Shown in pieces: positions 1-16,333 of a stretch of DNA of 23,401 nt (position 1 is the stretch's first letter; each line of letters starts with the position of its first letter). The DNA is from a virus (lineage: Duplodnaviria; Heunggongvirae; Uroviricota; Caudoviricetes). The notes under the pieces were generated by a model, which searched no databases, was not told where the DNA came from, and saw only the letters and a program-made list of their open reading frames with translations. Position numbers and translations under genes: made by a program. Where the stretch lies: IMG/VR virus record IMGVR_UViG_2667528074_000003, positions 1-23,401 of that record. One strand, given 5' to 3'.

Positions 1-615
1 ATGTTAGTTAGTAAAAGCAACGGATTTAACGCTAGCGCAGTTTTGGGTAGTGGAAGTTATAATGAAAATAAATCTTCTAAACACATGGAGCTACTAGCTC
101 ATAGTATTTTAAAATTAATTTGTAAGGAAGCTGCATCAGAGACGTATCGCGGTGCTCTTGAAACTTTACAAAAAATGATGTCTGAATGTATATATCATGA
201 AGGCAACGCCTTTGTCATTATGGGAGTTGGAGAACAATTAAAACGTATTAAATATGAAGTTGGTGAAAATAACTTAAAGGTATTCAACGTACACTTTAAT
301 AATAATCACGAGTTAGTTAGTTCTGGTGAGCCTGACGTAATATGTTTAAGCAAGCAGGTCTGGGAAAATCTTCTCATTAAACTAAAGCTGGAAAACAATG
401 AAAATGTGTTTTCTGAAACTAAAAAATTATCGAATAAAAATAATGACGATCAGTTTTTTGAATGCGCTAAAAGAAATGAACAGAACCTTTTCGATAATAT
501 AAGAAAAAGTGATTTTCATGTTGGTTTACTTAAGCCAAGTAGTACGCGTAGTGTTATTTTAGAAACGCCGCCAAATGTCTGTATGGAATCACGTAATTCA
601 TATGAAAAAAAATAG
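1..615 (+). CDS. hypothetical protein, low-GC; possibly the 5' part of a longer gene split at an A8 tract
   Basis: 204-codon ORF in AT-rich DNA starting at the window edge (true start may lie upstream); ends TAG 613-615 directly after an A8 run (605-612). No recognisable domain. Confidence 0.35.
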   Translation: MLVSKSNGFNASAVLGSGSYNENKSSKHMELLAHSILKLICKEAASETYRGALETLQKMMSECIYHEGNAFVIMGVGEQLKRIKYEVGENNLKVFNVHFNNNHELVSSGEPDVICLSKQVWENLLIKLKLENNENVFSETKKLSNKNNDDQFFECAKRNEQNLFDNIRKSDFHVGLLKPSSTRSVILETPPNVCMESRNSYEKK

Positions 616-629
616 ATGAGATTTCATCT

Positions 630-1373
630 TTGTCAGAGTCAAAGGAACACCCCATAGATATTCAAGAAAAAAAAGATGCGTTTGTGAATGAGTTCAAGGG
701 GATATTATTTGATAAAAATGGAAGGTCTTCAGAGTTTCTACTTAATTTTTATGAATGTTGCTATGAGTTTTTACCAAGAGCGCAGCCTCAGGATAAAATC
801 GAAAGCTATAATTCAGCACTGCAAGCTTTCTCCATCTTTTGTTCATCTACGTTGATACATAATAATATAGGCTTTGATTTCAAATTATTTCCAGAAGTCA
901 AACTGTGTGGGGAAAATCTTGAAACGGTATTCAAATATAAAAATGGCGATGATGTCCGGGAGATAGCCAAAATTAACATTACTCTCCAAAAAGAAGAGGA
1001 TGGTTTATATAATTTAGGTGGATTGGATTTTAAGGGATGCTTCTTTTCTGGACAGAACTTCAGTAACTATGATATTCAATATGTGAACTGGGGAACGTCA
1101 TTGTTTGATCTTGATACTCCGTGTATTTTTAATGCGCCTGCTTACAACAAGAGTAATGAAAAATCATTAAAACCTGTGAGCGAAAACGGTTTAAGTGGAG
1201 TCTTGACTGATCGTAATAATAAAATAAAACTCATCACGGGCGTGGCACCATTCGATGATATTTTATTTATGGATGATGACTTTGATGATAGTTCCTCTGA
1301 GGATGATCCCGTTGAGAATAGTCCTGTTGTGACTAGTCCCGTTGTATCAAGTTCTAAAAGCAGTTTTCAATGA
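630..1373 (+). CDS. hypothetical protein, low-GC, acidic Ser/Asp-rich C-terminus; possibly the 3' part of a frameshifted gene
   Basis: 247-codon ORF with TTG start, no in-frame ATG near the 5' end and no Shine-Dalgarno; one extra A in the upstream A8 tract would fuse it in frame to ORF 1-615. Segment LDFKGCFFSGQNFSNYDIQYVNWG is loosely pentapeptide-repeat-like. Confidence 0.4.
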   Translation: MSESKEHPIDIQEKKDAFVNEFKGILFDKNGRSSEFLLNFYECCYEFLPRAQPQDKIESYNSALQAFSIFCSSTLIHNNIGFDFKLFPEVKLCGENLETVFKYKNGDDVREIAKINITLQKEEDGLYNLGGLDFKGCFFSGQNFSNYDIQYVNWGTSLFDLDTPCIFNAPAYNKSNEKSLKPVSENGLSGVLTDRNNKIKLITGVAPFDDILFMDDDFDDSSSEDDPVENSPVVTSPVVSSSKSSFQ

Positions 1374-1758
1374 TTAATAAATGGCTATTTTTACAAAGAG
1401 ATAATAACGTAGATTGAAACAATATGTATTATTGATTGATTAAACGGGATTATTTTTTACACTACAACCATTTTGCTGCCACTACCAAAGAAAAAGGGGC
1501 TACGCTTTCACGTAACCCCTTGATTTATTTGTTGAGCTGGCGGTGTCTGAATTGGTGCTGTAATTGGTTGAAATATTTATTCTAATGTCTGGTTCAACTT
1601 TCCTTAGCTGCCTGAAAGTTTTTTTGATCTTACCCATCAATAATAGGGTTACGGTACACCACGCCTGACTGATGAACTGCGTGCTCAGGGTTACCTCTTC
1701 AACGTAAAACCGTGGCAGGAGGTCCGGACTGAAAAAACTGCTCAGGACATTATCGGCG

Positions 1759-2016
1759 GTGGACGCACGGGTAGTCTGTAAACCGAACCGACTGGGGCGC
1801 AGTATGTGGCATCTTGTCGTGCTGTTGGAGGAGCTGTGCAAACGTGGTATTAACTTTCGTGCTCTGGCCCAATCTATATTTGCCCAACAATGGGGGGACG
1901 AATGCTGTAAAAGTAAAAGAATCTGCGATCTCAAAGTTATTGTGTTATTTTTATGTGAGCAGAAGATATTCATCAGAAACGATTATGTAAATCATTTTAT
2001 TTTGCCGACGGCCTGA
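1759..2016 (+). pseudogene. remnant of a Pin/Hin-type serine recombinase (DNA invertase), internal fragment only
   Basis: Translation VVCKPNRLGRSMWHLVVLLEELCKRGINFRALAQSIF matches the conserved central block of serine invertases as I recall it (Pin: VVWKLDRLGRSMKHL...ELRERGINFRSLTDSID). No N-terminal catalytic-Ser region or C-terminal HTH; the ORF tail is unrelated. Confidence 0.5.
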
Positions 2017-2285
2017 TTGTCGAAAGAAAAGAATACCCCCGTATTCCCTGAATAGATTGACTTTTTTATCCAACCATACTTCAGCGCACTGCGTTTAAAA
2101 AATGCTTCTTTCTTATGTGGAATATCATCATTTCATCATGATGTCTTTGATGAGCGGTGAACACAATACACTTGCGCTGTCTCTTCAGGATGAATCCCCT
2201 GGTCTGGTGCCTGTGGGCTGATGTTGCAGCAGAGCTAAGGTCGCTTAAACGCTACTCAGTATTCACTTTTCAGAGGATGAAATTT

Positions 2286-5200
2286 ATGAACAGGACCAGT
2301 CCCCATTATTGTCGCCGCTCAGTACTTTCCTTATTGATATCTGCCTTGATATATGCCCCGCCTGGGATGACGGCCTTCACTCCTGATGTTATTGGTGTGG
2401 TAAACGATGAGACTGTAGATGGCAGCCAAAGAGTAGATGAACGAGGTACAACAAATAACACTCATATTATCAACCATGGCCAGCAGAATGTTCATGGCGG
2501 GGTATCTAATGGAAGTCTTATTGAATCGGGTGGATATCAAGATGTAGGAAGTCATAACAATTTTGTGGGGCAGGCTAATAATACAACCATTAACGGAGGA
2601 AGACAGACAATTCATGACGGGGGCATTTCCACCGGTACGATAATCGACAGTGGCAATCAGGACGTTTATACAGGTGGTATCAGCAATGGAACGACAATTA
2701 AGGGTGGTAATTCACACATAAGTGGGGGGACTGCGAATGGAACCATCATTGATGGTGGAGGGCAGAAAGTAACAACTCAGGGGCATGTTGATGGTACAAC
2801 GATAAATAAGTCCGGTTATCAGGACATCACGCAAGGAAGTATTGCAACGAACACAATCATAAATGGTGGACGACAGTATGTTGAACAGAGCACAGTAGGA
2901 ACAACCACCATTAAAAATGGCGGTGAGCAAAGAGTATATGAAAGCCATGCGCTGGACACGACGATTGAAGGTGGAACTCAGTCTCTGAATAATAAGTCAA
3001 CGGCAAAAATACTCAGATCTATTCTGGTGGTACGCAAATTGTTGATTACACCAGCTCCTCGGATGTTATTGAAGTTTATTCCGGTGGCGTGCTTGATGTT
3101 AGTGGTGGTACGGCAACAAATGTTACCCAGCACGATGGTGCAATTTTAAAAACAAACACTAACGGTACGACGGTGAGCGGTACGAATAGTGAAGGTGCAT
3201 TCTCCATCCACAATCACGTGGCAGACAATGTGTTGCTGGAAAACGGTGGTCATTTAGACATAAACGCATATGGTTCGGCAAACAAGACGATTATTAAAGA
3301 TAAAGGAACAATGTCAGTTTTAACGAATGCTAAAGCTGATGCGACCCGAATAGATAACGGCGGGGTAATGGATGTTACCGGAAACGCGACCAATACCATA
3401 ATCAATGGTGGTACACAGAATATTAATAATCATGGTATTGCCACGGGTACCAATATCAACGGCGGAACGCAAAATATCAAGAGCGGCGGGAAAGCTGACA
3501 CGACAATTATATCCTCCGGGAGCCGGCAGGTTGTTGAGAAAGATGGTACGGCAACTGGCAGCAATATTAGCGCCGGAGGCTCGCTGATTGTCTATACCGG
3601 TGGTATTGCACATGGGGTTAACCAGGAGACGGGCAGTGCTTTAGTTGCCAACACGGGCGCAGGGACTGATATTGAAGGATACAACAAGCTCTCTCACTTC
3701 ACTATTACCGGAGGGGAGGCTAATTATGTTGTGCTGGAAAATACCGGCGAACTGACGGTAGTGGCTAAAACCTCGGCGAAAAATACTACCGTTGATGCTG
3801 GCGGTAAGCTGATTGTCCAGAAGGAGGCTAAAACAGATACCACCAGACTTAATAATGGTGGCGTTCTGGAGGTTCAGGACGGTGGTGAGGCTAAGCATGT
3901 TGAGCAACAATCCGGCGGCGCATTAATTGCTTCCACAACTTCCGGAACCCTTATCGAAGGAACCAACAGTTATGGTGATGCTTTCTACATCAGGAATTCA
4001 GAAGCTAAAAATGTAGTGCTGGAAAACGCTGGCTCATTAACAGTCGTCACTGGTTCCCGGGCAGTTGATACGATTATTAATGCCAACGGCAAAATGGATG
4101 TTTATGGAAAAGATGTTGGCACTGTACTCAATAGTGCTGGCACCCAAACAATATATGCCAGTGCCACTTCTGATAAAGCAAATATCAAAGGTGGCAAGCA
4201 AACGGTATATGGATTAGCCACTGAGGCAAATATCGAAAGTGGTGAACAAATTGTTGATGGTGGGTCAACAGAGAAAACACACATCAATGGTGGCACGCAA
4301 ACCGTTCAGAATTATGGTAAGGCAATCAATACCGATATCGTCTCTGGCCTACAACAAATTATGGCAAACGGGACAGCGGAAGGTTCCATTATTAATGGGT
4401 GTTCACAGGTAGTTAATGAGGGCGGTCTGGCTGAAAACTCGGTGCTTAATGACGGCGGCACACTCGATGTGCGGGAGAAAGGCAGCGCAACGGGGATACA
4501 GCAGAGTAGCCAGGACGCTTTGGTTGCAACCACCAGGGCGACGCGGGTCACAGGAACACGCGCGGATGGCGTCGCGTTCAGCATCGAGCAGGGTGCGGCG
4601 AACAATATCCTGCTGGCAAATGGCGGCGTGTTAACCATGGAGTCAGACACCTCTTCTGACAAAACACAGGTCAATACGGGCGGACGGGAGATCGTCAAAA
4701 CAAAAGCCACTGCGACAGGCACGACGCTCACCGGCGGCGAACAAATCGTCGAGGGGGTGGCGAATGAGACAACGATTAACGACGGCGGAATACAAACAGT
4801 TTCAGCTAACGGAGAGGCAATAAAAACAAAGATCAATGAAGGCGGTACGCTGACAGTTAACGATAATGGCAAAGCGACAGATATCGTCCAGAACAGCGGT
4901 GCCGCTCTCCAGACGAGCACGGCTAACGGTATTGAAATCAGCGGTACTCACCAGTACGGCACTTTTTCCATTTCCGGCAATTTAGCGACCAATATGTTGC
5001 TGGAAAATGGCGGTAATTTATTGGTATTAGCAGGTACCGAAGCTCGCGACTCCACGGTTGGCAGCGGTGGAGCCGCCAACGGCAGTTATCGCAGCAACGG
5101 GCTGGGCGGTCACATTGAAACCGGGATGCGATTTACCGATGGTAACTGGAACCTGACGCCGTATGCATCGTTAACGGGGGTTCACCGCTGATAACCCTGA

Positions 5201-5865: not shown

Positions 5866-7038
5866 TTACCGGGCTGCAGAAATCGCCGTTTTTCCATCGT
5901 ATTCTGCAAGGTAAGAGCCGTAATGTCTGAACAGCATTTCCGGTCCTTTGTGCCCCATCTGACCAGCCAGCCAGAACAGGTTAACGCCCTGGCTAATGTG
6001 CCGAGTGGCGAACGTATGGCGTGTCTGGTACGGATTGCGATAACGTACACCAGCCTTTTTAAGGGTCGGTACCCAGGCTTTTTTGCGGATCGCATCTGCG
6101 TTTGCCCAGGGAGCTCGAGTTTTCGGATCGCTGAATATGAAGTCGCTTTTTAGCGCCGTGTAGGGCTTTTGTGCCTGAAGAGCTACCAGCGCTTCGTTGT
6201 TCAGTTGTACTTTGCGAGTACCGGCTTTTGTTTTGGTACTTTTGATTACCCCGACTACGCTTGCAGTCTGGACATGTGCTGTGTTGCCGATGAAGTCTAT
6301 ATCTGTCCAGCGCAACGCGCACAATTCCGAGCTGCGTAGTCCGGTATTAAAGGCGAAACGAAACAGATTTTGCCATTCCGGGTAATGACAGGCGTCATAG
6401 ATTGCTGCTGTCTCTGCTGGCGTAAAAGGATCGACCTCGTAATCATCACTGCCTGGTGTGTTGTCCAATACGTGATACCGGCTGGCGCTGACCAGCGTGA
6501 CAGGATTTATTGTTAACAAACCATCGGTCACCGCTTCATCTATGGCGCTGCGCAGAAATGAAAGATTATTGCGGATCGTTTTCAGTTTTGTTTTTCTGCT
6601 GGCGATCCAGTTTTTGAGTACTGCAGGTGTCAGTTCTGATACATGAAATTTATGCAGTGCTGACAGTGCAGACAGGCATTTTTCATACCCTTTAATTGTC
6701 GATGGCGACAGGTTACGGTTCTGGCAGATAGTCAGGTATTCATCCAGGTAAGATTTTATATTTTTGTTTTTTTTCACTCCCCCGAACAGCTCCAGCTTTT
6801 GGGAGTTGGGGAAGTATTTTGCATATTCGAAGGTACCACCGATAATCTGATTTTTTATTTCTCCCAGCAGACGCTCGGCATACTTCACACCGCGCGCGTT
6901 TACTTCCATTCTGGAGAGGGGCTCCCGACACAGAACCCCTTTATATGTAAAAGTGATAACCAGAGTGCTACCAGTTTTATGCTGGCGAATAGTTACTCCT
7001 CTAGGGAGAGATAATGATCCTTGTTCTTTCTTGCCCAT
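5866..7038 (-). CDS. int: tyrosine site-specific integrase (lambda Int family)
   Basis: 390 aa; C-terminal catalytic region with RHTFATRHISQG and LAGQMGHKGPEMLFRHYGSY (conserved His/Arg and catalytic Tyr); GGAG RBS; adjacent to att core and transcribed toward it. Confidence 0.9.
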   Translation of the reverse strand: MGKKEQGSLSLPRGVTIRQHKTGSTLVITFTYKGVLCREPLSRMEVNARGVKYAERLLGEIKNQIIGGTFEYAKYFPNSQKLELFGGVKKNKNIKSYLDEYLTICQNRNLSPSTIKGYEKCLSALSALHKFHVSELTPAVLKNWIASRKTKLKTIRNNLSFLRSAIDEAVTDGLLTINPVTLVSASRYHVLDNTPGSDDYEVDPFTPAETAAIYDACHYPEWQNLFRFAFNTGLRSSELCALRWTDIDFIGNTAHVQTASVVGVIKSTKTKAGTRKVQLNNEALVALQAQKPYTALKSDFIFSDPKTRAPWANADAIRKKAWVPTLKKAGVRYRNPYQTRHTFATRHISQGVNLFWLAGQMGHKGPEMLFRHYGSYLAEYDGKTAISAAR

Positions 7039-8046: not shown

Positions 8047-8874
8047 TTATTTAATCTGGATAAATGGTGTATTGGCACCACTGGTCATGTATTGCGGCAG
8101 TGTACCGTTCCACTTGTTGATGGCTTCCAGTTCCATGACGCCTGGGTTCTGGCGCAGAGCTTCGCCGCGTAAACGAATGGCATCGGCTTCTGCCTGGGCT
8201 TTTGTACGAATCGCATCAGCCTGTCCGGCAGCTTCCGCGCGCAGCATGTTGGCTTCCGCTTCGCGCTGTTTTACTTCCTGCTCGCGTTGCAGGGTTTTCT
8301 GGTTCGCCGTGACTTTGGCATTAATGCTGTCGATAACGGTTGGCGGGTATTCCGGCTTACCCACATATGAGAGGCTCATTACCTGAATACCAATGGGTGT
8401 CATTTCTTCCTGAATGTCTTTGAGAGCTGCATCCAGAAGTTCAGACTTACCGCCGTCGATAAATTTGTCGGTGGTCATTTTGCTGGCCAGTCGGTTGAGT
8501 GCATCTGCGATCTTCTGGCGCAGGTCTGTGTCGGTAATGTCATCCACGCCTTTGCGGTAGGTCTGAAACACCGTGGTAACTTTGGATGGATCAACTTTGT
8601 AGGCCACACCGATGTGATAGCCGATGGTTGTACCGTCACTCATCTGGAAACTGAACGGTTCATCGTAGGTCTTCATTTGTTTGAAGGTGGGGAAGATATA
8701 AACTTCAGTATTCCAGCCAGTCCAGTAGCGACCAACACCGACCACCTCACCGACGCCTTTGTCGTCGCCCAGTTTATTTACCTTGATGCCAACATTACCT
8801 GGTTCAACGCGATCGCAACCGACAAGGCCAATGGTCGGAATAACAATGGCTAAAGCAAAAATAACTTTTTTCAT
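8047..8874 (-). CDS. SPFH/band-7 (stomatin-prohibitin-flotillin-HflK/C) domain lipoprotein
   Basis: 275 aa; N-terminal signal with lipobox (MKKVIFALAIVIPTIGLVGC); SPFH-like core; C-terminal Ala/Glu/Arg/Gln-rich coiled coil (QREQEVKQREAEANMLRAEAAGQADAIRTKAQAEADAIRLRGEAL); AAGGA RBS; ATGA overlap with the upstream gene. Confidence 0.8.
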   Translation of the reverse strand: MKKVIFALAIVIPTIGLVGCDRVEPGNVGIKVNKLGDDKGVGEVVGVGRYWTGWNTEVYIFPTFKQMKTYDEPFSFQMSDGTTIGYHIGVAYKVDPSKVTTVFQTYRKGVDDITDTDLRQKIADALNRLASKMTTDKFIDGGKSELLDAALKDIQEEMTPIGIQVMSLSYVGKPEYPPTVIDSINAKVTANQKTLQREQEVKQREAEANMLRAEAAGQADAIRTKAQAEADAIRLRGEALRQNPGVMELEAINKWNGTLPQYMTSGANTPFIQIK

Positions 8875-9059
8875 CTTTTATCCTTAGTGAAAGAAAGACC
8901 CTTGTAAATGGCATAAATGCAGGGCGGGGTCAGAAACGCCAGTGCAAAGCCGGAAATGACTGCTACCGTATCCTTCATGGATATAAGGAACGGGACGAGT
9001 AGTCCGTAAATGCATGCGATAATTGCCAGTAAAATTACTATTCTGAAATACAATCTCAT
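8871..9059 (-). CDS. small two-helix membrane protein, translationally coupled to the SPFH lipoprotein
   Basis: 62 aa with two hydrophobic stretches (IVILLAIIACIYGLLVPFLI and VISGFALAFLTPPCIYAIY); its stop overlaps the SPFH start (ATGA). Weak RBS. Confidence 0.55.
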   Translation of the reverse strand: MRLYFRIVILLAIIACIYGLLVPFLISMKDTVAVISGFALAFLTPPCIYAIYKGLSFTKDKR

Positions 9060-9236: not shown

Positions 9237-9818
9237 TTAATGTGTCACTGGTGCTTCTGGTATACCATGAGTATTCAGATCGTGAATCATTTCATCCAGA
9301 AGGAGTTCAAGCCCTTCGCGCCCCATAGCAGAGACAATGAAGCCATTATCAGGATCTGCGATGAGCATTTTTTGATAGAGAAACAGAACTCGCCCCATGC
9401 CTTCATCTTCGCCATATTTTTCAATAAATCCCCATTCGACATGGTTTTGCAGGGCAATGCGAAGTGGCCCCGGGTATATACTCATACAACCATGCTTTCC
9501 CTTATAAATAACTGCGTGATCTGTGGTTCCGTTATCGTTAGGGATATCAATGGTACCGTTCTTGTTTTCCTCTTCACTGATAAACGTCGCCACATACAGC
9601 CAGCGCCATTGAGCAACCTTCATATCGACTGAAAATCTTCCCAGGAATCCGGCATCATCGGCTTCTGCAATACATTGCATGATTCTTAAACCGTGCCAGC
9701 ATGGATTGTCGTACTCACCATCATTAAGACGCTGTACGGCCTCAACATAATCAATGGTTGTACTGTCAATTTTTATGCCATGAGCTGTCGCTTCTGGTTT
9801 GAATTCAAAATTGTTCAT
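9237..9818 (-). CDS. hypothetical protein (193 aa), downstream member of an overlapping two-gene unit
   Basis: ATG 9818 preceded by AAGGAA; start overlaps the stop of the upstream 72-aa ORF (ATGA); no recognisable domain. Confidence 0.6.
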   Translation of the reverse strand: MNNFEFKPEATAHGIKIDSTTIDYVEAVQRLNDGEYDNPCWHGLRIMQCIAEADDAGFLGRFSVDMKVAQWRWLYVATFISEEENKNGTIDIPNDNGTTDHAVIYKGKHGCMSIYPGPLRIALQNHVEWGFIEKYGEDEGMGRVLFLYQKMLIADPDNGFIVSAMGREGLELLLDEMIHDLNTHGIPEAPVTH

Positions 9819-10033
9819 AATGTTTGTTCCTTTGCTGGTGGAATAATCGTGTAACCCGCTCTTTTTGCCATCCACAGAAATGTATCCATGCAACCAACGA
9901 ATTCATTATCCAACAGATGTTTTGAGTAAATCACTTTCCCATTTTCAATGGTCAACAACACTCTTACTTTTTCGTGTATTACCCCCCCCTGCTCAGGCTC
10001 ATTCTGCATTTTATTTCGTGCTGATGTCTCCAT
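9815..10033 (-). CDS. hypothetical protein (72 aa), upstream member of the overlapping two-gene unit
   Basis: ATG 10033 preceded by GGGAGA at 8 nt (the track start at 10048 is an alternative); stop overlaps the next start. Confidence 0.55.
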   Translation of the reverse strand: METSARNKMQNEPEQGGVIHEKVRVLLTIENGKVIYSKHLLDNEFVGCMDTFLWMAKRAGYTIIPPAKEQTL

Positions 10034-10231
10034 TATTTTATCTCCCATAAGCCTTGCGCAAATACAGGTTGGCTATATGAAGATAAGAATCTCCATGTTG
10101 TGCAATGAGGCAGGCAGTTTTATACGATGCCTTATTTTTCAGGAAAGTCATAACTGAGTTCCCTCTATGAATAAAAGTTGTAACAATTCCCGGCGATAAA
10201 ACCGTAATAAACGTTCAGGGCATATTGGTTG

Positions 10232-10597
10232 TTATTGCGCTAATTCTTTTTCGGCAGCAGCATTTGCATATTCACATGCAAAATTCAGAATTTCGCTGCC
10301 AAGTGTTTTTGTTTCATGATTACTGGACATATGTAATACCTGTGTTGCATGCAATAAATGATAAACATTGACCGCAAATGAATCAGGTTCCAGACAAATG
10401 CCTTCATAATCATCTTGCTGTGAGGTTGTTTCTGTCATTGTTCCCGAAGTACATGCGAACCTGTTTTTGACAATACTCTTTCCTCTAATCACTATATCGG
10501 CAACATCTATTGCTTTTATAACCTCCGGGAGAAATTCCTGGTTTGTATAATCAAACTCATCAACACAGAGAACGGTTATGTTTTCGAACTTTTTCAT
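10232..10597 (-). CDS. hypothetical protein (121 aa) whose C-terminal ~65 aa are paralogous to the N-terminal domain of the upstream 153-aa HTH protein
   Basis: ATG 10597 overlaps the stop of gene 10594-11055 (ATGA). Shared block: DSFAVNVYHLLHATQVLHMSSNHETKTLGSEILNFACEYANAAA versus DSFALNIANLLSAVRTFHLLDCARSKELGIEVMEFIHEYALSAA. Confidence 0.6.
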   Translation of the reverse strand: MKKFENITVLCVDEFDYTNQEFLPEVIKAIDVADIVIRGKSIVKNRFACTSGTMTETTSQQDDYEGICLEPDSFAVNVYHLLHATQVLHMSSNHETKTLGSEILNFACEYANAAAEKELAQ

Positions 10598-11055
10598 GCG
10601 CAAGTATCTCCAGCTGTTGGTTTACCGGTTAACAGCCACATCGGATCGCAACCAAGAACATTTGCCAGCGGGATAAGCATACTGATAGTTGGTTCATACT
10701 CTCCGCTCTCCCACTGGATGATGATATCTTCATCGAGATCGAGCAGACTGGCGAGTTCGGCTGTTGTTAAGCCGCAGGCTTCGCGTTGGGTGCGAAGGTT
10801 AACCAGCCAGCTTTTAGGGAAGGATTGTTTTTGTTGTGCAGGAGAAGCCGCAGATAGAGCATATTCATGGATAAATTCCATTACCTCAATGCCCAGTTCC
10901 TTTGAGCGAGCACAATCCAGAAGATGGAATGTGCGTACAGCACTTAGCAAATTTGCAATATTTAATGCAAAGGAATCAAGTTCTAAGCCCTTAAGCGTAA
11001 CACAGCCGCAGTTGATAAAATTAGTTGTTTCTGGAGTTGCGTTTAGTGTCTTCAT
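10594..11055 (-). CDS. two-domain regulator: N-terminal domain of unknown function plus C-terminal XRE-type helix-turn-helix
   Basis: 153 aa; C-terminal HTH LRTQREACGLTTAELASLLDLDEDIIIQWESGEYEPTISMLIPLANVLGCDPMWLL; first gene downstream of the pL-like promoter; RBS GGTGGA. Confidence 0.65.
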   Translation of the reverse strand: MKTLNATPETTNFINCGCVTLKGLELDSFALNIANLLSAVRTFHLLDCARSKELGIEVMEFIHEYALSAASPAQQKQSFPKSWLVNLRTQREACGLTTAELASLLDLDEDIIIQWESGEYEPTISMLIPLANVLGCDPMWLLTGKPTAGDTCA

Positions 11056-11108
11056 ATATCCACCAACAATTTTAAATTGAACTAAATCAAGTTATAATTG
11101 ATGGTGCG

Positions 11109-11137
11109 ATATTATGCTTTGAGAAATAGGCTGTCAA
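11109..11137 (-). promoter_or_regulatory. sigma70 promoter for the leftward early operon (pL analogue)
   Basis: Minus strand: TTGACA, 17-nt spacer, TAATAT, placed between the cI terminator and the 153-aa gene; leader contains palindromes ATCAA-N7-TTGAT and CAATTTAAAATTG. Confidence 0.5.
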
Positions 11138-11165
11138 GAAAAAATTGATATCGTGTGTTTTAGGC

Positions 11166-11189
11166 AGAAAAAAACGGGCAAAGCCCGTT
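11166..11189 (-). terminator. rho-independent terminator downstream of cI
   Basis: Minus strand AACGGGC-TTT-GCCCGTT followed by a T tract, starting 12 nt after the cI stop. Confidence 0.6.
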
Positions 11190-11200
11190 AAAATCAAAGA

Positions 11201-11890
11201 CTAACCAAATCTGTTTATATTGAATGGTACTGATGAGATCACTTTAGACTGGATATAAAGCAGAGCTAACCCCTCTTTTTCGATGCTCCATGGTTGATAA
11301 TTGGGGTTATCAGATAACACCATGATTTTGCTTCCAATTTTTTGAAGTCTTTTCACGTAGCATTCTCCATCAAAACAAAATGCATAAATGCCATCGCCAT
11401 CAAAATAAGTTACTGTCTTATCAAGAAAAAGAAGGTCGCCAGGTGAGATTGTGGGAGCCATACTGTCTCCTCTGGCGTTGCCTATTTCTATATTTTTAAA
11501 TGCTCGGTTTCCAACAAGACGACGGGCATATTCAGGATCAAGTTCTATTGAGCGTACTACATCTATAAAGTCTCCGCGGACATGGGTCCCATTACCGCAA
11601 CTAAATTCAACGTCAAGTACATTAAACACGACGCTATCTGTTCTTGCCTGATGTTTCTCTTGCGAAGAGAAGGTTGGTGAGGTGTCTTCACCTAAGAACC
11701 AGGATTGTGGATAACCGCTAATCTCTGATAACTGCGCAAGCTTATCGCTCCGTGGAAATGTTTTTCCTGTGGTCCAGTACTGCACTGATTGCGCACTCAC
11801 CCCCAGCTTACGGGCCAGCTGAGCCTGAGTCCATCCTTTTGCTTTCAGCATTGCGGCTATTCTATTTTCTGTGTTTTTGACGTTCTTCAT
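11201..11890 (-). CDS. cI: CI-type prophage repressor (N-terminal HTH plus C-terminal S24/LexA-like autopeptidase)
   Basis: 229 aa; HTH WTQAQLARKLGVSAQSVQYW; S24 motifs GDSMAPTISPGD (Ser nucleophile) and CYVKRLQK (Lys); divergent from a cro-like gene. Confidence 0.85.
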   Translation of the reverse strand: MKNVKNTENRIAAMLKAKGWTQAQLARKLGVSAQSVQYWTTGKTFPRSDKLAQLSEISGYPQSWFLGEDTSPTFSSQEKHQARTDSVVFNVLDVEFSCGNGTHVRGDFIDVVRSIELDPEYARRLVGNRAFKNIEIGNARGDSMAPTISPGDLLFLDKTVTYFDGDGIYAFCFDGECYVKRLQKIGSKIMVLSDNPNYQPWSIEKEGLALLYIQSKVISSVPFNINRFG

Positions 11891-12023
11891 GACCAGGTCC
11901 CGTGGGTTTCTTTACAAGGGTAAATCTTTACTTGATTTTAGTGTATTCGATCCTTTTGCAACTTGCATGTTAATTTAAACTTGATGTATTCTTGATTCAT
12001 TAAGTTTATCTTGGTGATTTGTT
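11891..12023. promoter_or_regulatory. immunity-region operator/promoter interval between cI and cro (OR analogue)
   Basis: 133-bp divergent intergenic region with four CTTGAT-type repeats (ACTTGATTTTA, ACTTGATGTAT, TCTTGATTCAT, TCTTGGTGATT) and palindrome TTTACaaggGTAAA; the same ACTTGAT motif recurs in the pL leader. Exact -35/-10 not resolved. Confidence 0.5.
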
Positions 12024-12296
12024 ATGAAAGGAAATGATTACGACGAACTTCGTGCATTAATTGCGCAAAATGCCATAGCGCGAAATCTTGGTGTGACACC
12101 GCAAGCGGTGAATCAGTGGTTTTCAAAAAGCACAATTCCTGCTCGTTTCGTTTTACGGGTATGTGAGGTGGTTGCATGGAAGGTTACGCCTCATGGCTTA
12201 AGGCCAGATCTTTACCCTCACCCTGAAGATGGAATTCCTGATTCGTTACGCAAAACATCAAATCCAAGCTTAGCGCACACGGGGGAGGGGAGGTAA
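12024..12296 (+). CDS. cro: Cro-like small HTH regulator (YdaS/Cro type)
   Basis: 90 aa, divergent from cI; HTH-like LGVTPQAVNQWF; RBS GGTGA 6 nt upstream. Confidence 0.7.
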   Translation: MKGNDYDELRALIAQNAIARNLGVTPQAVNQWFSKSTIPARFVLRVCEVVAWKVTPHGLRPDLYPHPEDGIPDSLRKTSNPSLAHTGEGR

Positions 12297-13441: not shown

Positions 13442-14148
13442 TGAACACCGCAATTTTTAACGACAAAGTATCCATGACCAGCGTTGAAATCGCAGAGCTG
13501 GTTGGAAGTCAACACGGCAATGTCAGAATATCAATAGAGCGTCTGGCAAAACGCGGGGTGATTCAACTTCCTGCAATGCAAAAAGTTGAGAACGAACAAT
13601 CATTTAGCCAAAACAAATTCACAAACGCATATATTTTCGAAGGCGAACAAGGCAAACGCGACAGCATCATTGTCGTCGCACAACTTTGCCCGGAATTCAC
13701 TGCCCGCCTGGTAGATCGTTGGCGCGAACTGGAAGAGCAGGTGCGCAAACCAATGAGCGAAATCGAAATGGTTGCCGCGATGGCTCTTGAAGTAGTTCGT
13801 CAGCAAAAACGCCTCGACAAGATGGAAGAAAAAGTTAGCCACGTTGCCGAAACTGTCGAACAAATCAAAAGAGGCACCATACGCGATGGTTATGCAGGAT
13901 ACCGTCAGCTGGTGGCGAAAACAGGTATGTCAGATGCTAAATGCCGCAATCTGGTGAACGCATATCAGATCCCTACCGACACCCATGAATTTATGACGCC
14001 AGACGGATTATTGTCTCGTCGCGCGATTGTTGCAGTAGAACCCTTCATGTTTGCTTTTCATCGCATGATGAGTGAAGCAGAACCACGAGGTACTCGCTGG
14101 TATCACCCGAAAATGGGCCTGTTTCAGGCGCTGGGCTGGCAGGTGTAA
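13438..14148 (+). CDS. phage regulatory / antirepressor-like protein with N-terminal Rha-type DNA-binding region
   Basis: 236 aa; N-terminal MTSVEIAELVGSQHGNVRISIERL ... RWRELEEQ resembles the N-terminus of phage Rha/antirepressor proteins as I recall them; C-terminal half unassigned. Confidence 0.65.
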   Translation: MMNTAIFNDKVSMTSVEIAELVGSQHGNVRISIERLAKRGVIQLPAMQKVENEQSFSQNKFTNAYIFEGEQGKRDSIIVVAQLCPEFTARLVDRWRELEEQVRKPMSEIEMVAAMALEVVRQQKRLDKMEEKVSHVAETVEQIKRGTIRDGYAGYRQLVAKTGMSDAKCRNLVNAYQIPTDTHEFMTPDGLLSRRAIVAVEPFMFAFHRMMSEAEPRGTRWYHPKMGLFQALGWQV

Positions 14149-14362
14149 TTATGCTCACAGGTAACACATGCAAGTACTCAATCGCTGGTTCCGCGATGGC
14201 AGAGGGCGTCGCGTCCACGTTATACACTGGGAGTCTGAAACACAGCGGGTCATTTACCTGCGTGATGGTTATTCGCATGAATGCTTCAGTCCGTTGTGGT
14301 TGTTTCGTCGTGATTTTGTGGAGTGTGAAGCGCCGCCAGAGTGACGGCGTAATGGTGGAAAC

Positions 14363-14671
14363 TTACACGAAGCGGATCTGGAGTTTTTTTCCTGTTGCGC
14401 GGGCAAATTTTTTCAGTGTGGAAAATGATGGTCCACTGACACCTGACGCCAGATTACTTTCCATTCTGCTGATGACAGTTGCTTTGGTTCCCATACGCTC
14501 AGCGATCTCAGCTTGGGTTAAACCAGCTTCTTTACGTGCTGCCAGCATTTCATCAAGCAACGCAAATTCGTCGGCGATGGCGTCGTATTCTGCTTTAAAA
14601 GCTGGATCCTCCATCCATTTATCAGCCATTTCATCATGTGTAATGGTTGGCGGATTACGTTTACCAGTCAT
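14363..14671 (-). CDS. HigA-like antitoxin (XRE HTH)
   Basis: 102 aa with HTH GLTQAEIAERMGTKATVISRMESN; immediately downstream of and overlapping (11 nt) the toxin gene, the toxin-first order typical of HigBA modules. Confidence 0.8.
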   Translation of the reverse strand: MTGKRNPPTITHDEMADKWMEDPAFKAEYDAIADEFALLDEMLAARKEAGLTQAEIAERMGTKATVISRMESNLASGVSGPSFSTLKKFARATGKKLQIRFV

Positions 14672-14990
14672 GCTTTACCTCCTTCATTCTGGTTTCAGCT
14701 TTTTGGCGTTCGGCTGGTGGGGTTTTCTGGGTCTTCTTGATGAAACTATGCAGCATGATGATGCGTTTTCCTGCCAGGGTGCAGTAAAAGACGCGTGCGA
14801 TGCCATCACTACCTTTAATCCGAAGCTCGAAAAGCCCGTTACCGAAAGCACTGGTATGAGGTTCTCCGAGATTGCTGCCGTATACCTTCATGCGTTCAAC
14901 AAGATGCTGGTATCGGGCACGCATACTCAATGGAAGCTGGTCGACCTCCAGCCTGACCTCTTCACTGTAGTATTCGATAGTGTAGTTCAT
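14661..14990 (-). CDS. HigB/RelE-superfamily toxin (phage gp49-like mRNA interferase family)
   Basis: 109 aa; characteristic motifs NGLFELRIKGSDGIARVFYC and IMLHSFIKKTQKTP. Confidence 0.8.
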   Translation of the reverse strand: MNYTIEYYSEEVRLEVDQLPLSMRARYQHLVERMKVYGSNLGEPHTSAFGNGLFELRIKGSDGIARVFYCTLAGKRIIMLHSFIKKTQKTPPAERQKAETRMKEVKHDW

Positions 14991-14996
14991 GAGTTA

Positions 14997-15020
14997 AAAC
15001 ATAACAAAATGGTTATGTTT
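14997..15020. promoter_or_regulatory. palindromic operator candidate upstream of the toxin gene
   Basis: Perfect 9-bp inverted repeat AAACATAAC-N6-GTTATGTTT ending 7 nt before the toxin start codon; overlapped by a TTGTGC-17-TATGTT promoter-like element on the minus strand. Confidence 0.4.
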
Positions 15021-15671
15021 GCACAATATATTGATTCTGCAATTTCGGGACGTTACACTGTTCCAGCACCTTATAAAGCGGGTGCCGGGATTTGCACCCC
15101 GGAATTGCATACGGCGATATATGACGCGCCAGCGTCTTTTTTATCGTCCGCGCTCACGCACGCCAGAATTATGGTGGGCTGGGTAGGGGAGCCGAAAGGC
15201 TCGCCGGTTTCCGTATGCGCCGGTAGTGCAAACCCTGTTCAGTCCGCCACCAGCGAGATTTGCACCTCCGGTGGTGGAAGTTATCCATTGCATACGGAGG
15301 CTGCCATCATGGCTACAGTCCCAACTTCCCCATTCCTCAAAATTGAGATCGTCAACGGTAAGGCCGTTATTTTTTCCCTGCATGTTGCCTGCCACTTCAA
15401 GCGCATGCACCAGAACATCGTTGACAAAATCGAGTATCTGAACTGCTCGCGTGAATTTTTTACCCGCAATTTCATTCCGGGTACTTATCACATCTATGGT
15501 GACTCTCTGCGTGGTTATTACATCACCCTTGATGGTCTGATGATGCTTCAGCTTGGGTTAAGTCTGCGCACAATGCGGTACTACGAGAGCTGTATTGATG
15601 CATTCCATGAAGCTGAAACCGTCCAGGTACATTCCGCTTTCCGTCGTCATCAACGGGAGGTGCACCTATGA
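15009..15671 (+). CDS. Rha-domain phage regulatory protein, tandem paralog 1 (start uncertain)
   Basis: C-terminal ~110 aa carry a Rha-like winged-helix pattern (SLHVACHFKRMHQNIVDKIEYL ... YYITLDGLMMLQLGLSLRTMRYYESCIDAFHEAE). ATG 15009 has no SD; an internal ATG at 15309 has a GGAGG RBS. The frame stays open upstream only because it is antisense to the TA genes. Confidence 0.55.
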   Translation: MVMFAQYIDSAISGRYTVPAPYKAGAGICTPELHTAIYDAPASFLSSALTHARIMVGWVGEPKGSPVSVCAGSANPVQSATSEICTSGGGSYPLHTEAAIMATVPTSPFLKIEIVNGKAVIFSLHVACHFKRMHQNIVDKIEYLNCSREFFTRNFIPGTYHIYGDSLRGYYITLDGLMMLQLGLSLRTMRYYESCIDAFHEAETVQVHSAFRRHQREVHL

Positions 15672-16333
15672 TCCGCTACCTGAATATTGATTCTGCACTT
15701 TTGGAACGTTACACTGTCTCTGCACCTTATAAAGCGGGTGCCGGGCGTGGAAACCCGAAATTCAATATAGAGCACAACCGCGCTCATGCGGTTTTTTCGT
15801 GTCATGAGCATTGCTACGCCCAAATTATGGTGGGGCGTGCAGGGCCAACTTCGGTTGGGCCGGGTTCTATGTTGACCGGTATTTCCACCCCTGTACGTCT
15901 CACCACCTATATGGTCGTGGAAAGCCTTGGTGGTGAGTTCTTTGAATTCAACATAGGGGCTGTCACCATGACTACCACCACTACCCACCCATTCCTCAAA
16001 ATTGAGATTATTAACGGTAAGGCCGTTATTTTCTCCCTGCATGTAGCCTGCCATTTCAAGCGCATGCACCAGAACATCGTCGACAAAATCGAGTACCTGA
16101 ACTGCTCGCGCGAATTTTTCACCCGCAATTTCATACCGGGTACTTATCACATCTATGGTGACTCTTTGCGAGGTTATTACATCACCCTTGATGGCCTGAT
16201 GATGCTTCAGCTTGGGTTAAGTCTGCGCACAATGCGGTACTACGAGAGCTGTATTGAAGCATTCCATGAGGCAGAAACCAGCGTGAATCATACCGCTTTT
16301 CGCCGTAATCAATGGGAGGCGCGCCATGTGTAA
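15668..16333 (+). CDS. Rha-domain phage regulatory protein, tandem paralog 2
   Basis: 221 aa; ATG overlaps the stop of paralog 1 (ATGA) and is preceded by GGGAGGTG; the C-terminal domain is nearly identical to paralog 1 with mostly synonymous differences. Confidence 0.65.
   Translation: MIRYLNIDSALLERYTVSAPYKAGAGRGNPKFNIEHNRAHAVFSCHEHCYAQIMVGRAGPTSVGPGSMLTGISTPVRLTTYMVVESLGGEFFEFNIGAVTMTTTTTHPFLKIEIINGKAVIFSLHVACHFKRMHQNIVDKIEYLNCSREFFTRNFIPGTYHIYGDSLRGYYITLDGLMMLQLGLSLRTMRYYESCIEAFHEAETSVNHTAFRRNQWEARHV

Follow-up and report, generated by a model that had tools for sequence, protein, structure and literature searches.

Two overlapping genes on the minus strand of a Caudoviricetes virus (IMG/VR record IMGVR_UViG_2667528074_000003, positions 1 to 23,401; this stretch of 23,401 nucleotides is called the window) encode a 153-amino-acid (aa) regulator with a helix-turn-helix (HTH) domain of the XRE family and a 121-aa protein that has no HTH. 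By sequence comparison, the two proteins are homologous over one domain, a predicted two-helix element that we call the class-I helical hairpin. The sequence ATGA, which holds the stop codon of the first gene and the start codon of the second, indicates that the two genes are translationally coupled. We propose, with a probability of about 0.4, a composite picture in which a self-associating hairpin has been shuffled and in which, in phages like that of the window, the HTH-less protein would titrate or modulate the regulator in the manner of SinI. The gene pair has the following features.

10594-11055, minus strand: 153-aa modular XRE-family regulator, homologue of phiP27 L10 (open reading frame, ORF; phrog_4836, PHROG E = 1.8e-77)
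10232-10597, minus strand: 121-aa HTH-less protein, homologue of phiP27 L08 (ORF; phrog_5451, PHROG E = 1.1e-77)
10594-10597, minus strand: ATGA stop/start overlap, probable translational coupling (sequence)
10846-10986, minus strand: class-I helical hairpin at the regulator N-terminus, residues 24-70, shared domain (BLASTP; AlphaFold2 helices 24-45 and 49-69, predicted local distance difference test score (pLDDT) ~78)
10238-10402, minus strand: class-I helical hairpin at the C-terminus of the 121-aa protein, residues 66-120 (BLASTP; AlphaFold2 helices 71-89 and 94-120, pLDDT 83-92)
10627-10812, minus strand: five-helix XRE HTH, regulator residues 82-143, nearly invariant across immunity types (Pfam HTH_3; Foldseek; 26 invariant columns in A1)
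10457-10582, minus strand: small alpha/beta module, residues 6-47 of the 121-aa protein (AlphaFold2 strand-helix-helix-strand-strand, pLDDT ~80)
10790-10805, no strand: mosaic joint at the junction of N-terminal module (N-module) and HTH, left edge of the immunity module (blastn)

The 121-aa ORF initiates with ATG at 10597 and ends at 10232 on the minus strand; the program-made ORF list starts the same frame at TTG 10603, which gives 123 aa. A first-pass annotation of the window had described ORFs of 153 and 121 aa that overlap. Both sizes are correct and the ATGA is common to the two frames. That annotation had also put the shared domain at about 35-40% identity over 40 residues, which is an underestimate. 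Residues 24-70 of the 153-aa protein align without gaps with residues 69-115 of the 121-aa protein, with 21 identities in 47 positions (45%, BLASTP E = 2e-10). The local alignment score is 94 and the z-score against shuffled sequences is 15.7-16.6 for representative sequences of both families, as compared with at most 2.2 for control neighbour ORFs in the same test. Pairwise and profile alignments agree on the significance of this similarity, since the PHROG profiles cross-match in both directions: those of phrog_4587 (E = 3.5e-7) and phrog_5451 (E = 3.3e-6) match the N-terminal domain of the 153-aa protein, and that of phrog_4836 matches the C-terminal domain of the 121-aa protein (E = 3e-4). 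The C-terminal hairpin of the 121-aa protein also corresponds to a stand-alone 66-aa family, phrog_4587 (E = 2.4e-28).

AlphaFold2 monomer models based on the family alignments contain a helical hairpin in both proteins. An invariant asparagine in helix 1 and an invariant tyrosine in helix 2 are common to fused and free class-I hairpins, and proteins of 61-71 aa made of the hairpin only are present in Escherichia coli, Pantoea and Salmonella. The domain is rare. Its profile retrieved only 63 cluster representatives among 1.84 billion proteins, and all the named ones are from Enterobacterales (E. coli, Salmonella, Enterobacter, Yokenella and Pantoea). The first-pass annotation had suggested looking for the domain in other phages; the gene pair is found again among prophages of E. 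coli, Salmonella and Pantoea, including phiP27 and Eru7-type Stx2a (Shiga toxin 2a) phages. A search of PDB sequences with the same profile returned a designed repeat protein alone (E = 0.036).

The HTH is C-terminal, as proposed in the first-pass annotation. Pfam HTH_3 (PF01381) matches residues 87-141 of the 153-aa protein with E = 1.4e-10 and 41.5 bits for a cut-off of 23. With a score beyond the gathering threshold and a fold of five helices, the protein belongs among the XRE/Cro-CI HTH proteins. In the AlphaFold2 model, a disordered N-terminus is followed by the hairpin, a linker and the five-helix HTH at 82-143. The HTH model superimposes on P22 C2 and on 434 repressor and Cro with Foldseek template modelling (TM) scores, relative to the target, of 0.84-0.88 and root-mean-square deviations of 1.2-1.5 Å. 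The 121-aa model shows the alpha/beta module, a disordered linker and the hairpin, in this order; its comparison with PDB and BFVD folds gave no structural relative and nothing below E = 0.36. For the hairpin and the alpha/beta module alike, no match was obtained in PADLOC, Pfam, NCBIfam, BFVD or the PDB, the last searched by sequence and by fold. Confidence in the predicted folds of hairpin and HTH is moderate. Outside the HTH, no Pfam family matches either protein at E<=1, and Pfam SinI (PF08671) is not matched. Searches of Pfam, NCBIfam and PADLOC gave no match to N, CII, S24, toxin or defence families, so that no characterised family accounts for either protein. Neither of the two results that would have spoken against the first-pass annotation, an insignificant alignment or membership of a well-characterised family, was thus obtained.

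At the DNA level, the window shares 93-96% identity with E. coli prophages and phage PhiR49_2, and its L08 part does so with phiP27. The gene pair corresponds to L10/L08 of phiP27, whose record notes give "unknown". PHROG labels family 4836 "CII-like regulator". All 159 homologues of the 153-aa protein are annotated merely as "helix-turn-helix domain-containing protein", and none of the 29 homologues of the 121-aa protein bears a name. Of 5426 complete E. coli genomes, 282 (~5%) contain the segment coding for the HTH core, always under that same label. Stx1a, Stx2a and Stx2d phages carry it as well; in one of them, the Eru7 reference Stx2_14040, the order is Cro, CI, a 242-aa regulator and a 66-aa hypothetical protein. 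A literature search found no published characterisation of phiP27 L10/L08-type genes, and the papers on Eru-type Stx phages are silent on them. Beyond the HTH, the pair has no characterised counterpart in Pfam, PDB or the literature and is only catalogued as PHROGs 4836, 5451 and 4587, to which the profile matches assign it. Eru7-type Stx2a phages are particularly widespread in Europe and are present in severe outbreak strains (PMC8951638). Under the name "Clade VIII CI", the same study reports Stx-phage proteins with two HTH domains, no S24 domain and an unknown role (PMC8951638). These might be candidate two-HTH members of the phiP27 L10-type regulator family and not true CI.

The 153-aa homologues are built from a highly variable N-module, an almost invariant HTH and an optional second HTH, the latter giving common forms of 230 aa; lengths from 138 to 265 aa coexist in the family. 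We recovered 80 IMG/VR loci with the HTH core and distinguished eight N-module types among them. N-module type is perfectly linked to the repressor type encoded 5' of the regulator (N0 with U0; N1, N2 and N3 with U1; N4 with U2; N5 with U3; N6 with U4; N7 with U5). On the DNA level, blastn homology of the window to five other immunity types starts abruptly at 10796-10805 (~10797), which means that the left boundary of the immunity module falls inside the regulator gene. In loci L003 and L006, a 165-bp HTH segment (window 10636-10805) forms an island of ~93% identity between unrelated flanks. In its behaviour, the HTH segment resembles a conserved linker for recombination. Between members of the same immunity group, identity is 87-93% for CI proteins as compared with only 49-62% for the N-modules, which indicates that the N-module evolves fast. 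The N-module is retained in two-HTH proteins, which suggests a role beyond dimerisation. The single-HTH form of the window ends with CDPMWLLTGKPTAGDTCA (10594-10650 region), a tail that follows the second HTH in P0055-like relatives. We infer from this tail that the 153-aa form looks like an in-frame recombinant between two HTH repeats.

In 77 of the 80 loci, at least one gene for a small HTH-less module lies within 700 nt 3' of the regulator, often overlapping its stop codon. The type called D0 is a class-I hairpin, either fused with the alpha/beta module as in the 121-aa protein or alone at 61-68 aa. D5 (63 aa) is a class-I hairpin of B/C subtype and D4 (63 aa) belongs to a second helical class. 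N1-N3 match D0 (z = 10-16), N4 and N5 match D5 and the C-terminal domain of P0147 (z = 12-28), and NE, a class-II hairpin, matches D4 (z = 14). D1 (80 aa) has no significant similarity to any N-module type tested. The alpha/beta module heads the two-HTH Salmonella proteins P0168, P0176 and P0180 (E = 2e-8 to 2e-7) and occurs alone in Pantoea. Three kinds of module (class-I hairpin, class-II hairpin and alpha/beta) are therefore each found both fused to an HTH and free downstream. This recurrence of three kinds in both settings is far beyond chance and shows repeated shuffling between the two positions. At the level of these comparisons, the shared domain is shown to come from shuffling or duplication of modules between the 5' end of the regulator gene and the small downstream genes. 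A literature search found no description of the shared-domain relationship, of the fused and free recurrence of the three kinds, or of the immunity boundary inside the gene.

In Pantoea the gene order is Cro, CI, a hairpin-HTH protein (183 aa), the alpha/beta module alone (69 aa) and the hairpin alone (67 aa), and the free hairpin resembles the N-module of its own regulator (z = 12.8). This single Pantoea locus was retrieved by scanning genome contigs with a degenerate CDPMWLLTG pattern. In Pantoea gossypiicola (L083, 7346-7755), the alpha/beta and hairpin genes are separate and overlapping, which means that the E. coli 121-aa protein arose by fusion of the two or, conversely, that the Pantoea genes arose by its splitting. 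The Salmonella locus L094 encodes, in this order, a hairpin-HTH-HTH protein, an alpha/beta-HTH-HTH protein, a free hairpin of class I and a protein with a class-II hairpin at its start. The same Salmonella enterica locus also holds, at 522-1147 between cI and the hairpin-HTH gene, a divergent pair of HTH genes of 113 and 95 aa, which looks like a candidate toxin-antitoxin pair of the HigB/HigA type.

The two genes can reasonably be regarded as the first of a CI-controlled early-left operon, the position given to them in the first-pass annotation. This assignment holds at the level of consensus matches: cI, a terminator, a sigma-70 promoter and operator-like sites are found directly 5' of the pair.

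11201-11890, minus strand: CI-like repressor with HTH_3 and Peptidase_S24 (Pfam)
11173-11189, minus strand: intrinsic terminator, 3' of cI
11109-11137, minus strand: pL-like sigma-70 promoter TTGACA-17-TAATAT (10/12 consensus match; kept in all U1-type loci)
11133-11149, no strand: second operator-like site, over the -35 (1 mismatch to ATCAAT-N6-TTGAT)
11086-11102, no strand: operator-like palindrome ATCAATTATAACTTGAT, just 3' of the -10 (0 mismatches to ATCAAT-N6-TTGAT)
11061-11106, minus strand: leader inverted repeat or hairpin ending at the Shine-Dalgarno sequence (RNA fold -14.9 kcal/mol, z = -3.1)
12024-12296: YdaS/Cro-like gene, divergent from cI
5866-7038: integrase, with small early genes between it and cI

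The cI-cro intergenic region carries related sites resembling ATCAAT-N6-TTGAT at 11920-11936 and 11969-11985. Since the pL-like promoter is flanked by operator-like sites, both genes are probably silent in the lysogen. Besides the window, leader hairpins are seen in loci L005, L074, L009, L006 and L084-L086. Those 5' of the regulator start range from -14.9 to -20.9 kcal/mol (z = -3.1 to -4.6), with a 3' arm that reaches the Shine-Dalgarno sequence, and immunity types of unrelated sequence have hairpins of 10-15 bp, no less strong, at the same site (z = -4 to -6). In lambda, the N leader contains an RNase III-sensitive hairpin, of which the window leader is reminiscent. The window hairpin may in part be a by-product of the two adjacent operator palindromes.

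The two-gene system most resembles SinR/SinI, by analogy and without being a member of that family, and an interaction of the same kind is putative here. In SinR/SinI and SlrR/SlrA of Bacillus subtilis, a two-helix oligomerisation module of an XRE-type HTH regulator is homologous to a small adjacent protein without HTH. The same relationship is found in the window, where the regulator module is homologous to the adjoining HTH-less protein (45% over 47 aa, E = 2e-10). In PMC3163267, the SinR/SinI heterodimer surface is described as made of residues conserved between regulator and antagonist, and DNA binding is abolished. The N-terminal domain of SinR and the HTH of the 153-aa protein also share their fold (Foldseek TM(target) 0.85-0.88). 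There are differences. The module is C-terminal in SinR, whereas the window regulator has it at the N-terminus (hairpin 24-69, HTH 82-143). The helices are longer here, with ~20-27 residues. Unlike SinI, the 121-aa partner is encoded downstream in a coupled gene and has an additional alpha/beta module. Finally, the modules are hypervariable here and the type of the partner does not track that of the regulator.

The composite picture can be drawn as follows. The gene pair would open the CI-repressed leftward early operon of a lambdoid prophage of phiP27/Eru7 type. The first gene codes for a DNA-binding XRE regulator that joins a near-invariant HTH to an exchangeable, fast-evolving N-module, here a class-I hairpin. 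The product of the second gene has no DNA-binding domain and consists of two modules, alpha/beta and class-I hairpin. Two-helix hairpins must pair, as in four-helix bundles, to bury their hydrophobic faces, and the hairpin is thus probably an oligomerisation or interaction module; we infer that it self-associates and oligomerises the regulator. With hairpins of the same class and translational coupling, mixed 153-aa/121-aa oligomers would be likely, and the partner would titrate or re-wire the regulator, the action of SinI on SinR being the model for its effect. Homology, predicted hairpins, the existence of hairpin-only proteins, the ATGA, the 77 of 80 loci, the Pantoea locus, the three module kinds present in fused and free form, the retention of the N-module in two-HTH proteins, the shared Asn and Tyr and the SinR/SinI precedent argue for this picture. 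Within the family as a whole the pairing is not obligatory, since in most cases the same partner adjoins regulators with unrelated N-modules.

Several observations weigh against this picture. If partner and regulator were matched, partner type should co-vary with the N-module of the regulator, and across more than 80 related loci it does not. D0, whether as the 121-aa or as a 66-aa partner, follows N0, N4, N6, N7 and NE regulators as readily as N1 and N2. N0, NE, N6 and N7 have no detectable similarity to the D0 that follows them (z <1.3), and for N0+D0, the commonest combination and that of phiP27, z is ~0-1. N3 regulators, though of class I, are without any D0. P0147, a 121-aa partner with a B-type hairpin (z = 27.8 to N5), sits behind an N0 regulator in L090, and in L091 what comes after the NE regulator P0105 is a partner of A type instead of its look-alike D4. 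Profile-profile comparison with hhalign detects no similarity between class-I and class-II hairpins. No conserved operator for the invariant HTH was detected near the locus, and no palindromic intergenic site was found among the 11-mers common to 7-8 of the 8 immunity types. Apart from those in the part coding for the HTH, the main 11-mer clusters present in all types fall in the coding sequence of a Rha-like gene (13942-13955 and 14095-14105). The tracking of CI type by N-module type is explained by simple linkage. Since partner type is independent of the N-module, the core function of the partner cannot depend on its resembling the resident regulator, and the hairpin match of the window is, by these comparisons, one of several combinations.

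The first-pass annotation had suggested hetero-oligomerisation, as a regulator plus anti-regulator or as an antitoxin-like sensor pair. The first version partly stands: homology, coupling, the occurrence of the predicted hairpin in free form and the fit to SinR/SinI logic are in its favour, and the idea of a dedicated pairing fails in the comparison of loci. A "regulator plus anti-regulator" pairing is plausible in the window, with pieces that related phages combine freely. The antitoxin-like version finds no support, no toxin or defence match being present in Pfam, NCBIfam or PADLOC.

The main rival of the composite picture is that the similarity reflects descent only. The free small proteins would act independently, for instance in host takeover or anti-defence, and the regulator would have captured one of their self-associating modules for its own oligomerisation, with no functional interaction between the two products. 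The independence of partner type and N-module, with unrelated domains in the commonest N0+D0 pairs, is what this explanation expects. So are the sharp mosaic joint at the N-module/HTH junction, where the HTH is an island of ~93% identity in unrelated DNA, and the partner subtypes, which follow the 3' flank rather than the N-module. It accounts less well for a free module directly 3' of the regulator in 77 of 80 loci and across genera, for the frequent stop/start overlaps, for the presence of all three module kinds in both fused and free form, and for the Asn and Tyr that are invariant in fused and free hairpins alike. On balance, we consider descent alone somewhat less likely than the composite picture.

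Another explanation invokes a common binding target of the N-module and the free modules, for example phage CI/Cro, RNA polymerase or a host protease, in which case the free copies would protect the regulator or compete with it. Lambda CIII provides a precedent, as this FtsH substrate and inhibitor from the early-left operon protects the HTH activator CII. A common target would account for the missing co-variation of partner and N-module, and both genes indeed lie in the early-left operon. The PHROG label "CII-like regulator" of family 4836 goes in the same direction. The perfect linkage of the N-module to CI and its faster evolution (49-62% against 87-93% identity) are compatible with an interaction surface under pressure. 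However, physical proximity explains the linkage to CI, and no Pfam match to lambda CII or CIII was obtained at E<=1. We regard such a decoy for a common target as improbable. In a combinatorial scheme of modules and decoys, the invariant HTH would carry a rapidly diversifying, immunity-linked interaction module, and the free modules, which often differ from the resident type, would be type-specific dominant-negative or antirepressor-like binders directed at regulators or repressors of heterotypic lambdoid phages. This combinatorial version is a slightly longer shot. If true, prophages of E. coli and Salmonella, Stx phages among them, would compete with one another or coordinate their induction through this locus.

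It is very unlikely that the two genes form a toxin-antitoxin or anti-phage defence pair in which the HTH protein would serve as antitoxin or sensor and its small neighbour as effector. An HTH protein does adjoin a small protein and has weak matches to antitoxin and RmrA/CapH models, but these matches span the generic HTH alone. The 121-aa protein has no match in Pfam or PADLOC, only a chance match in NCBIfam and no structural relative in PDB or BFVD, so that it was rejected as a component of a known defence system or of a type II toxin-antitoxin system. In many loci the partner is no more than a hairpin of 61-68 aa, and genes behind an operator-flanked pL-like promoter would probably be silent in the lysogen. 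The idea of a functional analogue of lambda N, an antiterminator heading the pL operon, has in its favour the gene position and the structured leader and nothing else, and is hardly tenable for a protein with a canonical P22 C2/434-type HTH, no N-family match in Pfam or NCBIfam and no arginine-rich motif in its N-terminus MKTLNATPETTNFINCG.

Other known systems share part of the arrangement. L10 and L08 of phiP27 are direct homologues at the same position (CI, regulator, small protein), L08 being ~90% identical to the 121-aa protein. L10, however, joins the same HTH to an N-module of class II (N0) that is unrelated, and it is separated from L08 by ~580 bp that hold another small ORF, whereas the window genes overlap. 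Eru7-type Stx2a phages such as Stx2_14040 have a "transcriptional regulator" and a 66-aa hypothetical protein at the same position, but their regulator has two HTHs and 242 aa. Lambda CII and CIII also combine an early HTH regulator with a small early-left protein that could be a competitor or decoy; there is no sequence relationship with the window pair. In lambda, cII belongs to the rightward operon, and no CII domain is paralogous to CIII. P22 C2, 434 repressor/Cro and DicA have the same HTH fold of five helices; in the Foldseek alignments, identity to P22 C2 and 434 repressor/Cro is 29-32%. Unlike them, the 153-aa protein has no S24 or C-terminal dimerisation domain and its HTH is C-terminal to an accessory module.

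Several identities were considered and rejected. For DicA, the NCBIfam score is 36 bits for a cut-off of 101. Phage_CII is absent from hmmscan results at E<=1, "CII-like" being merely a PHROG label. The 153-aa protein matches HTH families only and is not a cleavable repressor of the CI/LexA type; the S24 repressor is its neighbour at 11201-11890. PsrA/PsrB is AraC-like and unrelated to the gene pair. No recognisable homologue of N, CII or CIII was found in the early-left region of these phages.

The module described here opens the early-left operon of a widespread group of enterobacterial prophages that includes phiP27 (Stx2e) and Eru7-type Stx2a phages. In Stx phages, the lysis-lysogeny decision controls Shiga-toxin output. 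If the hairpins mediate contacts between regulator and anti-regulator, the locus would provide a compact switch component and natural, fast-evolving "micro-protein" antagonists in phages. Otherwise, the locus still offers an unusually clean case of shuffled domains, with a constant HTH at the centre that is also the left immunity boundary.

Elsewhere in the early-left operon, a 275-aa SPFH/Band-7 lipoprotein and an overlapping 62-aa membrane protein are encoded at 8047-9059 on the minus strand (compare phiP27 L05). Further upstream in this operon are phrog_1515 (9237-9821) and phrog_340 (9815-10048), two families without assigned function. To the right of cro, two tandem copies of isrK small RNA plus C4 antisense RNA were detected on the plus strand at 15066-15254 and 15722-15910 (Rfam gathering level, 62-82 bits). 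They lie within and 3' of a 506-aa ORF of Ash/Rha type (14151-15671), and the arrangement recalls the P1 immI-type (c4/ant-like) cassette for antirepressor control, here in two copies. At the other end, positions 1-5200 of the window lie outside the prophage and contain ORFs for a DUF5508 protein and an AIDA-repeat autotransporter adhesin. The adhesin frames 2157-3149 and 3089-5191 overlap and could represent a frameshifted or split gene. The prophage ends at the integrase (5866-7038).

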